A stretch of 64,000 nucleotides of DNA from Thermoplasmata archaeon (GTDB lineage: Archaea > Thermoplasmatota > JASEFT01 > JBBABA01). This document shows, one piece after another, positions 44,813 to 46,192 of the stretch (position 1 is the stretch's first letter; every line of letters begins with the position of its first letter). A model generated the notes under the pieces. It made no database searches, was not told the DNA's origin, and saw nothing but the letters and a program-made list of their open reading frames with translations. The stretch lies in NCBI GenBank assembly GCA_041657955.1, contig JBBABA010000001.1, forward strand, positions 40,578-104,577, read 5' to 3'. Position numbers and translations under genes: made by a program.

Positions 44813-46192
44813 TCATTTCACTTTTGCAAACAGCACTATAAACGGGTATGCCAAAAGAACTGCACCGGCAACAATGAGCGTTGCCTTGACGTCATTGTAC
44901 AGCAGGAAACCCGCCAGCATTATGCACCCTCCAAGCACTCTGCCGAAATTCAGGAATAACTCTCTTGCAACTACCCCCTCGCCGATATTGTTTGTGCTTA
45001 TGTCTCCCACCAACGTATATGTAAAAGGAAGAAGCATGAATGTCAGCATGGAAACTAATGCAGCGAAAATCATCCACTCTGCAAAACTACCGCCAAAAGC
45101 CGTCAAAAGCGCAGATAAGCCCAACGGTATGCTGATCGCTTGAATAAAAAGCGCCCTCTTGCGCACCCTGTCGGAGATTCCCCCGATTATCAAAGAGGAA
45201 AACCCACCGAATACGCCAAGGTATGAAAGAAAGAGGCCGTAGGATATCTTCTCCTGGACGAGCAGCAATGTAACAAGCGGGATCGTAAGCCCGGTTATGC
45301 TGCTCCAAACCCCTTCAAAGAATATCAGGGGAGACAGTCTTTTGAATTTCTTCACTGCCTCGAATATGTTTACTTTGATGACTTCGTTATTCTCTGTTTT
45401 GATGGCTTTGCCGTTCCCCACGTTAGTAGCTTTGTCACTTTCTATTTTGATGTCTTTGTTATTCTCTATTTTTATAGCTTTGTTACTCTCCGTTTTGACG
45501 GTATTGTTGTTCTCTATTTTGACTGTATTGCCATTCACTATTTCGGTTGCTTTGTCGCTCTCCATCTTAGCAGCTTTATCAGTCTCGATTTTGGCAGTTT
45601 TGCCGCTCTCTATTTTGCTAGCCTTGTCGCTCTCTATCTTGACAGCTTCTTTGCTCTCTATCTTCGTTGACAGGACGAACCCAAAAAACAAAATCACAGC
45701 GGATATTAGGAATATGGGAGTATAACCATAATATTCCACGACAACCCCTGTGAGCGACGGCACAGTGGCCCCGAATATAGCCCAAAGAGCAAACTGCATC
45801 GTACTTTTGAGCGCCCGATCGCCTGACACAGTGAGTTCGAGATATATGGTGTTAAACGGAATGAAGAACATGACCAGCGAAAGCGCATATATCGCCGCGA
45901 GGGCGTATAATTGGATCGGCATAGTGATGAACGGCATGGCCGCATATACCGCAACCTTCAGCAGGAGGCTGGTTTTCAGGAATATGCTTCGTTTATAATT
46001 CCGGATAAACAATATCAGCGCGCCGACAATAAAACACGTCAGGGCGTAAAATGTGAGGATCTGCCCGAAATCAAAACCCCTTCCCCTGTACAAATAAAAA
46101 TAAACAAAACTCCACGCAAACGCATCCACAAATGCAATTATCGCGCCCAGCGAATATATTTTTACAAAATCGCTCCGCATTGTAAATTTCAT
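44813..46192 (-). CDS. MFS transporter with repeat-containing central cytoplasmic loop
   Basis: 12 TM helices; central loop of ~12 octapeptide repeats (KIESDKAS-like) encoded by a 24-nt periodic DNA repeat. Confidence 0.7.

Follow-up and report, generated by a model that had tools for sequence, protein, structure and literature searches.

The gene of a predicted membrane transporter in an uncultured Thermoplasmata archaeon carries an in-frame repeat with a period of 24 nt, and this raises the question of what kind of array it is and what it does to the protein. The repeat could be a locus that changes its length frequently, a folded or otherwise selected domain, or an old expansion of a loop that accommodates extra residues. 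We address these alternatives in a stretch of 64,000 nucleotides, hereafter called the window, with comparisons to related genes, proteins and structural models.

The host protein and the position of the array

The host gene (44813-46192, minus strand) encodes a protein of 459 amino acids, or 455 amino acids if counted from the second ATG, and is annotated at NCBI as "hypothetical protein WC974_00380" (MFA5771174.1) in a Thermoplasmata archaeon MAG. The initial annotation had recognized an MFS transporter in it, and profile and structure searches agree with this assignment. The protein matches the Pfam family MFS_1 with 43.5 bits (gathering score 33.4, E=2.5e-11), and PF07690 is present in all family homologs. 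The AlphaFold2 model (pTM 0.67) contains helices at residues 2-176 (6 TM) and 287-458 (6 TM), with pLDDT values that are mostly 65-92 in the TM core. When this model was compared with the PDB using Foldseek, the top 50 matches were without exception MFS transporters (50/50, target-normalised TM-scores of 0.54-0.78) and included MCT1, VMAT1/2, SLC37A4, OxlT, NorA, and SotB. A profile search of the PDB with the protein gave marginal matches to VAChT only, and the best sequence match had an E-value of 0.046. Taken together, the ORF, Pfam, AlphaFold, and Foldseek results identify the host protein as a 12-TM MFS transporter by its predicted fold, and transport activity is predicted.

Since the array separates the first six helices from the last six, it is located in the central linker between TM6 and TM7. 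On the N-terminal side, the loop is anchored by TM6 (45665-45718, minus strand), at about residues 158-176 and modeled by AlphaFold as helix H158-176, while the C-terminal anchor consists of the segment KKFKRLSP and TM7 (45260-45352, minus strand; AlphaFold helix 287-311). With the array left out of the count, Lys and Arg residues are concentrated in the even-numbered loops, KKFKR before TM7 included. Furthermore, a segment at residues 337-347 in the TM8-TM9 loop resembles motif A (G-x3-D-[RK]-x-G-R-[RK]) and is an approximate C-domain copy with an Arg in place of the second Gly. Because of the positive-inside count and the motif-A-like segment in the TM8-TM9 loop, we infer that the array loop is cytoplasmic, which is also where it had been placed originally.

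Twelve degenerate octapeptide units

The repeat, first reported at 45380-45670, is located at 45377-45664 on the minus strand and covers residues 177-272 of the ORF. It contains twelve clear tandem units of 24 nt, each coding for an octapeptide, in line with the estimate of about twelve, and a degenerate 13th unit, KVNIFEAV (45353-45376, minus strand), is placed next to the array on the TM7 side. The consensus of the twelve in-frame units is K-I-E-S/N-D/N/G-K-A-I/V, with units 1-5 being rich in S, D, and K and units 6-12 in N and G. The units show a regular phi-K-phi-E pattern (positions 8-1-2-3) followed by a polar turn, which is reminiscent of a strand and a turn. The array contains 18 Ile or Val among its 96 residues, and its coding strand has 48% A.

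Tandem Repeats Finder reported a period of 24 with 9.8 copies and 69% matches, on which periods of 48 and 72 nt are superimposed. We consider the periodicity to be real because, at a lag of 24, the array has a nucleotide identity of 0.67, whereas 2000 shuffles of its codons gave 0.37 ± 0.03 and never exceeded 0.47, and because a degenerate unit pattern has five matches in the window against an expected 0.02, with 5/5 of them inside the array.

The units had been described as near-identical, which does not hold: their pairwise identity is on average 65% at the nucleotide level (range 50-88%) and 42% at the amino acid level, and the longest exact direct repeat within the array is 12 nt. This identity and the short exact repeats argue for an old and degenerate array and not for a slippage hot-spot.

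The possibility that the array is an assembly artefact was rejected, since the same array is present in independent ENA, JGI, and Logan assemblies. The CDS of the host gene is identical in nucleotide sequence over its whole length in the independent ENA and JGI assemblies, and the three Logan assemblies that contain it have six differences in the CDS, each of which is located downstream of the array. An antisense ORF of 142 amino acids (45297-45725, plus strand), which contains LSLSIL-type repeats and represents the reverse reading of the array, was also rejected as a gene. It is a shadow of the array, as MFS homology on the other strand continues to either side of it. We note that this ORF might be miscalled as a hydrophobic repeat protein.

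An insertion into a short linker

To place the array in the context of the protein family, we collected relatives of the host protein. An exhaustive HMMER search against 1.8 billion representative proteins gave 254 relatives at E ≤ 1e-3, nearly all of which are 360-390 amino acids long and 25-35% identical to the host protein. The loop length was compared in an alignment of 61 of these 254 relatives. The segment that aligns to residues 170-290 is mostly 32-33 amino acids long in the 61 homologs (median 33, maximum 65), compared to 121 amino acids in the window protein and 89 amino acids in its closest relative, P0002. A loop composed of FGFVLST, KIESKEAV, KVNIFEAV, and ten further residues has a length of exactly 33 residues, and the excess therefore amounts to 11 octads in the window protein and to seven in P0002. 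No repeat was found in the distant homologs P0004 and P0005. Judging from this alignment, the array is an insertion into a short ancestral TM6-TM7 linker.

The unit KVNIFEAV aligns with a motif that is present before TM7 across the family, K-[IV]-x-[FIL]-[DN]-x-x-A-[VL] in the 61 homologs, of which KININFTQAV, KIKFDLRKAV, and IKVNLVQAL are examples. The unit is identical or 96% identical across the three alleles described below, and it has a nucleotide identity of 58-62% to the array units that match it best. KVNIFEAV probably represents the ancestral sequence of the loop, and it is a possible seed of the array.

Other searches retrieved fewer sequences. Word-index protein searches, run with the complete protein and with a version lacking the loop, identified only the three close alleles and the two distant homologs, a scan of the GTDB species-representative genomes for the host MFS protein gave no relatives, and a scan of metagenome contigs with conserved peptides gave no match. 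Four candidate proteins that the exhaustive search had matched through the repeat region (P0078, P0157, P0161, and P0167) were rejected as homologs, as they are unrelated E/K-rich low-complexity or coiled-coil proteins. A back-translated pattern for the pre-TM7 decapeptide had a single match in the metagenome contigs, L014 (900-929), which was discarded as a chance match because the protein with the decapeptide at its C-terminus is amidase-like and unrelated. This case illustrates that short back-translated patterns can generate false loci.

Length alleles and the age of the array

Three distinct alleles were identified: the window allele with 13 units (104 amino acids), P0002 with nine units (72 amino acids), and P0003 with nine units and two additional residues (74 amino acids). 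P0003 and one copy of the window allele come from the same JGI sample. The TM-coding flanks are 86-95% identical in nucleotide sequence between the alleles, all indels between them are multiples of 3 nt, and the ORF is intact in every allele. The initial annotation had proposed that the length of the loop could vary between strains. The lengths do differ among relatives, but the alleles represent lineages with a flank divergence of 5-14% and not close strains. It had also reasoned that an identical count in all orthologs, together with a structured domain, would speak against the proposal; the counts differ, and no fold was predicted for the loop (see below).

Both ends of the array are orthologous between the alleles, as seen from the end-unit pairs W_9/P2_5 (96%), W_10/P2_6 (83%), W_12/P3_8 (100%), and P2_0/P3_0 (83%), whereas the interior differs in both the number and the sequence of the units. 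It follows that the common ancestor of the alleles already had an array and that internal units were gained or lost later. Within the window allele, the most similar units are not neighbors (W_1/W_4, 83%; W_8/W_11, 88%). These pairs and the super-periods of 48 and 72 nt suggest that blocks of several units were duplicated.

In the population from which the window originates, the array is identical in all seven contigs (ENA, JGI, and Logan), which are essentially clonal copies in this region. P0001 was found on four contigs and P0007 on four. The DNA of P0007 is the same as that of the window allele through nucleotide 1223 of the gene and in the 1.5 kb upstream, after which it diverges. Since the sequences are identical up to this apparent recombination breakpoint near the 3' end, P0007 does not represent an independent lineage, and it was rejected as an independent strain for a test of repeat stability.

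These data bear on the reading of the array as an active contingency or VNTR locus, where frequent replication slippage alters the length of the loop between cells or strains. We regard this as hardly probable at all. The number of units differs between the alleles, as this reading predicts, and archaeal polymerases have been reported to slip on tandem repeats, according to studies cited in PMC9879509. However, units that are 65% identical and exact repeats of at most 12 nt offer little substrate for slippage, so that the proneness to slippage proposed at the outset would be low at present. Where the copy number changes between alleles, the flanks are also 5-14% different and the unit sequences have diverged. 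A hypermutable VNTR is recognized by near-identical units and a length polymorphism within the population, and in the assembled contigs we observed neither of them, although the identity of the array across the seven contigs has to be read in light of their nearly clonal nature.

Constraint on the loop and the transmembrane core

The amino acid sequence of the loop evolves faster than that of the TM flanks. In the flanks, dN is 0.02-0.06 with an omega of about 0.1, while the positionally orthologous end units have a dN of 0.15-0.26 and an omega of 0.12-0.63, estimated from only 24-32 codons. Among the units of the window allele, pS is 0.61, pN is 0.28, and pN/pS is 0.47, with the K at position 1 and the E at position 3 being the best conserved residues. 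These substitution patterns indicate that the TM core is under strong purifying selection and that the constraint on the loop is relaxed, yet apparently not absent. The retention of the phi-K-phi-E pattern and the polar turn at a pS of 0.61 suggests that there is selection beyond that on a mere linker.

This leads to the reading that the array is a selected functional module, for example an entropic bristle, a regulatory tether rich in charges, or a platform of short linear motifs for multivalent docking. As such, it might tune the kinetics of the rocker-switch or recruit a cytoplasmic partner, and its copy number could be adaptive. The array has been kept in frame across three diverged lineages, the pN/pS ratio and the conserved K1 and E3 point to some constraint between units, and the omega values of the end units are below 1. 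Moreover, repeat regions of a similar make-up in Borg elements have been argued to be selected and to contain linear motifs (PMC9879509). Against this, the omega estimates come from very few codons, neither a partner nor a motif was identified, and the 61 other members of the family manage with a loop of 33 residues (median). Nor are the neighbors of the gene fixed, as a gene for the P-type ATPase CopA is located downstream in the window and in L001 but absent in L015-L017, which are 99% identical. On balance, we find a selected module of this kind unlikely.

A loop without a predicted fold

Disorder of the loop was examined with structure prediction and composition. In the AlphaFold run with the full-length protein, residues 179-269 have a pLDDT of about 22 and no secondary structure. 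In a run with the loop alone, pLDDT is below 50 throughout, without strands, and the values over both runs range from about 22 to 40. The low pLDDT is weak evidence for disorder because the underlying alignments were very shallow, with five sequences in one run and a single sequence in the other. With respect to composition, the fraction of charged residues is 0.385 and the net charge per residue is 0.01, which makes the loop a neutral polyampholyte. The mean hydropathy of 0.391 is marginally on the disordered side of the Uversky boundary at 0.417. The predictions and the composition together suggest that the loop is most likely disordered.

A different signal came from similarity searches, in which the loop resembled the beta-helix of gp5 from phage T4. 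The Pfam profile Gp5_trimer_C (PF22178) aligned to residues 203-275 with 19.4 bits (E=1.2e-3), which is below the cut-off of 30.9, and a phmmer search against the PDB recovered more than ten gp5 beta-helix chains with E-values of 0.03-3.5 (lowest 0.028), in which the 8-residue registers were aligned. In these alignments, I2 of the unit corresponds to Val in gp5, E3 to E or K, D/N5 to N or D, A/T7 to T, and I/V8 to I. Position 4 corresponds to the Gly of the gp5 pattern VxGxxxxx, and it is occupied by N in 14/28 units, by S in 8/28, and by G in 1/28.

If this similarity reflected structure, the octads would form a beta-solenoid or beta-helix, either a gp5-like triple-stranded trimeriser or a monomeric beta-roll with two repeats per coil beneath the membrane. 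It would then be a rigid domain in the cytoplasm through which the two halves of the transporter are coupled or oligomerised, a structural add-on that would be unprecedented in the MFS superfamily. The profile match and the in-register alignments to gp5 chains are consistent with such a fold, and so is the agreement of the unit pattern with gp5 at most positions. In each unit, a short amphipathic strand could be followed by a turn at S-D, N-N, or N-G, residue pairs that favor turns, and this pattern has survived the synonymous divergence between the units. The gp5 helix is also known to accept extension by pseudo-repeats, and part of its interior is polar (PMC4576200).

However, neither match reaches its threshold, and scores of this kind are inflated when the query is periodic and of low complexity. 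An unrelated octad repeat, KLEEEQRI of a Legionella effector, matched the loop with an E-value of 4.8e-4, which is better than the gp5 matches in the PDB, and eukaryote-like E/K repeats matched it too. The defining Gly is nearly absent, the position that would point inward is Lys, Glu, or Asn, and neither of the two AlphaFold runs, which modeled a monomer from shallow alignments, predicted strands. The number of units varies from 9 to 13, and the two additional residues in P0003 break the register. A one-way rod meets a geometric problem as well: 96 residues would extend for about 55 Å, as estimated from the published dimensions of gp5, so that the far end would be at that distance from the membrane. 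In the protein, the last unit instead runs directly into the conserved pre-TM7 segment and TM7, without a linker that would lead back. Membership in the gp5 family was rejected because of the sub-threshold scores, the replacement of Gly by mostly S or N, the Lys, Glu, or Asn at the inward position, the lack of predicted beta structure, and the geometry and variable unit number of such a rod, and we judge the solenoid fold itself, as well as a coupling or oligomerising role for it, to be very unlikely. More generally, spurious matches to beta-helix and coiled-coil families are to be expected from periodic low-complexity loops.

A probable coding minisatellite in a permissive linker

Our preferred reading, to which we assign a probability of roughly 70%, is that of a coding minisatellite, in frame and specific to the lineage, which provides a disordered and flexible cytoplasmic linker. 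According to this scenario, about eight codons of the short ancestral TM6-TM7 linker would have been duplicated in tandem, resulting in 11 extra copies beyond the ancestral state in the lineage of the window. The copies would later have diverged, and blocks of 1-3 units would have been gained or lost. The duplications may have occurred by slippage or unequal recombination. The product would be a charge-balanced segment of about 96 residues, rich in K, E, D, N, and S, that joins the two six-helix bundles as a long and flexible tether in the cytoplasm. Such an insertion could be tolerated because the central loop of an MFS transporter only needs to link the two bundles, and the two halves of LacY, produced as separate polypeptides, still make a functional transporter. 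Any function of the array is presumably at most modulatory.

Large central loops are also present in eukaryotic MFS proteins, such as the plant tonoplast sugar transporters and the SUT2-type sucrose transporters. Similar to the array, these proteins indicate that the TM6-TM7 linker tolerates large and poorly conserved insertions, but their loops are not known to consist of a short tandem repeat and are often targets of regulatory phosphorylation. Bacterial coding VNTRs, including the SD repeats and the collagen-like repeats of surface proteins, are likewise in-frame minisatellites with copy numbers that differ between lineages. However, they usually form extracellular stalks of near-identical units with polymorphism at the strain level, whereas the array is predicted to be cytoplasmic, is degenerate, and is located within a polytopic transporter. 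No prokaryotic MFS protein with an octapeptide repeat loop was found in a literature search.

The closest described phenomenon is the amino acid tandem repeats (aaTRs) of Borgs, which are extrachromosomal elements of Methanoperedens (Schoelmerich et al. 2023). Borg aaTRs give rise to disordered regions that are often rich in K, E, and I; they have an A-rich coding strand and are common in membrane proteins (PMC9879509). The array shares with them an archaeal host, in-frame units in at least three copies with a length divisible by three, a disorder-promoting K/E-rich composition with predicted disorder, the A-rich coding strand, the location in a membrane protein, and a unit number that differs between related genomes; octapeptides are among the unit lengths reported for Borgs. 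In contrast, the Borg repeats are perfect or near-perfect, recent, and variable within populations, while the units of the array are 65% identical and old, and no variation within the population was seen among the essentially clonal contigs. Also, aaTRs are pervasive on the extrachromosomal element, whereas the array is chromosomal, on a MAG contig of 458 kb that contains tRNAs, SRP RNA, and MCM. The gp5 beta-helix (PF22178; PMC4576200) is more remote. It has in common with the array a period of eight residues, an alternation of inward hydrophobic and outward polar residues, and a turn with N or D, but the array is an internal loop, attached to the membrane on either side, and has Lys at the inward position.

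Read as a coding minisatellite, the locus would be a clean example of a repeat that was born from a few linker codons and expanded a loop roughly fourfold inside a polytopic membrane protein, apparently leaving the core undisturbed. It indicates that, in this uncultured Thermoplasmata archaeon, about 90 additional residues can be accommodated in the TM6-TM7 loop of an MFS protein. The three alleles provide material to study the birth and decay of repeats outside the Borg elements, and the array may be of practical value as a strain or lineage marker. It opens no new mechanism and settles no long-standing question.

Genomic neighborhood

In the strain represented by L015-L017, which otherwise has the same nucleotide sequence, the identity to the window breaks off within the final ~150 nt of the MFS gene (44813-44970), with six differences after nucleotide 1223. 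Beyond this point, the genes for the CopA P-type ATPase and a 73-amino acid protein (42421-44812 in the window) are replaced by genes for a 172-amino acid protein, a Band_7 protein, and a Zn-ribbon protein. The 3' end of the MFS gene looks like a recombination breakpoint that borders a variable copper-resistance island. The MFS and CopA genes are adjacent in two lineages, those of the window and L001. A functional link between the MFS protein and copper export was considered and is weakened, as CopA is absent downstream of the gene both in L015-L017 and at the locus of the Altiarchaeota homolog. A scan of the GTDB species-representative genomes for CopA gave only distant bacterial or archaeal matches.

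On the other side of the MFS gene, two neighbors without a Pfam match, encoding 209 amino acids (46314-46943, minus strand) and 139 amino acids (47225-47644, plus strand), are conserved and syntenic in all copies from the population of the window. The window contains archaeal SRP RNA and tRNAs, and scans for sigma-70 promoters and terminators were uninformative, as the host is archaeal.

Two other tandem repeats were observed in the window. The first is located in a coding region (6693-6768) within an ORF at 6677-7162 (plus strand) and has a period of 21 nt, 3.7 copies, and 82% matches. It encodes heptapeptides of the KETKDSN, KEAKDIN, and KETKEEK type at the N-terminus of a protein with a Prok-JAB (JAMM) domain, and repeat extensions rich in K, E, N, and D may be a tendency of this organism. 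The second is an intergenic T-rich repeat at 21333-21499 (TTTTTATCTCTATCTGTGTG), which has a period of ~20/42, with 95% matches at 42 and about seven short copies. It is placed directly upstream of an ORF for a KaiC-family ATPase (21573-22328) and could be regulatory.

A further segment (16057-16185, plus strand) matches the Rfam tRNA model with 46 bits over 129 nt but has no ARAGORN call, and it is probably an intron-containing archaeal tRNA. Finally, a gene for a HEPN-domain protein (48161-48553, minus strand) is adjacent to an upstream ORF for a nucleotidyltransferase (NTP_transf_2 / Polbeta). The two are arranged as in HEPN-MNT toxin-antitoxin modules, and the pair adjoins a tRNA-Gly gene (47849-47923).
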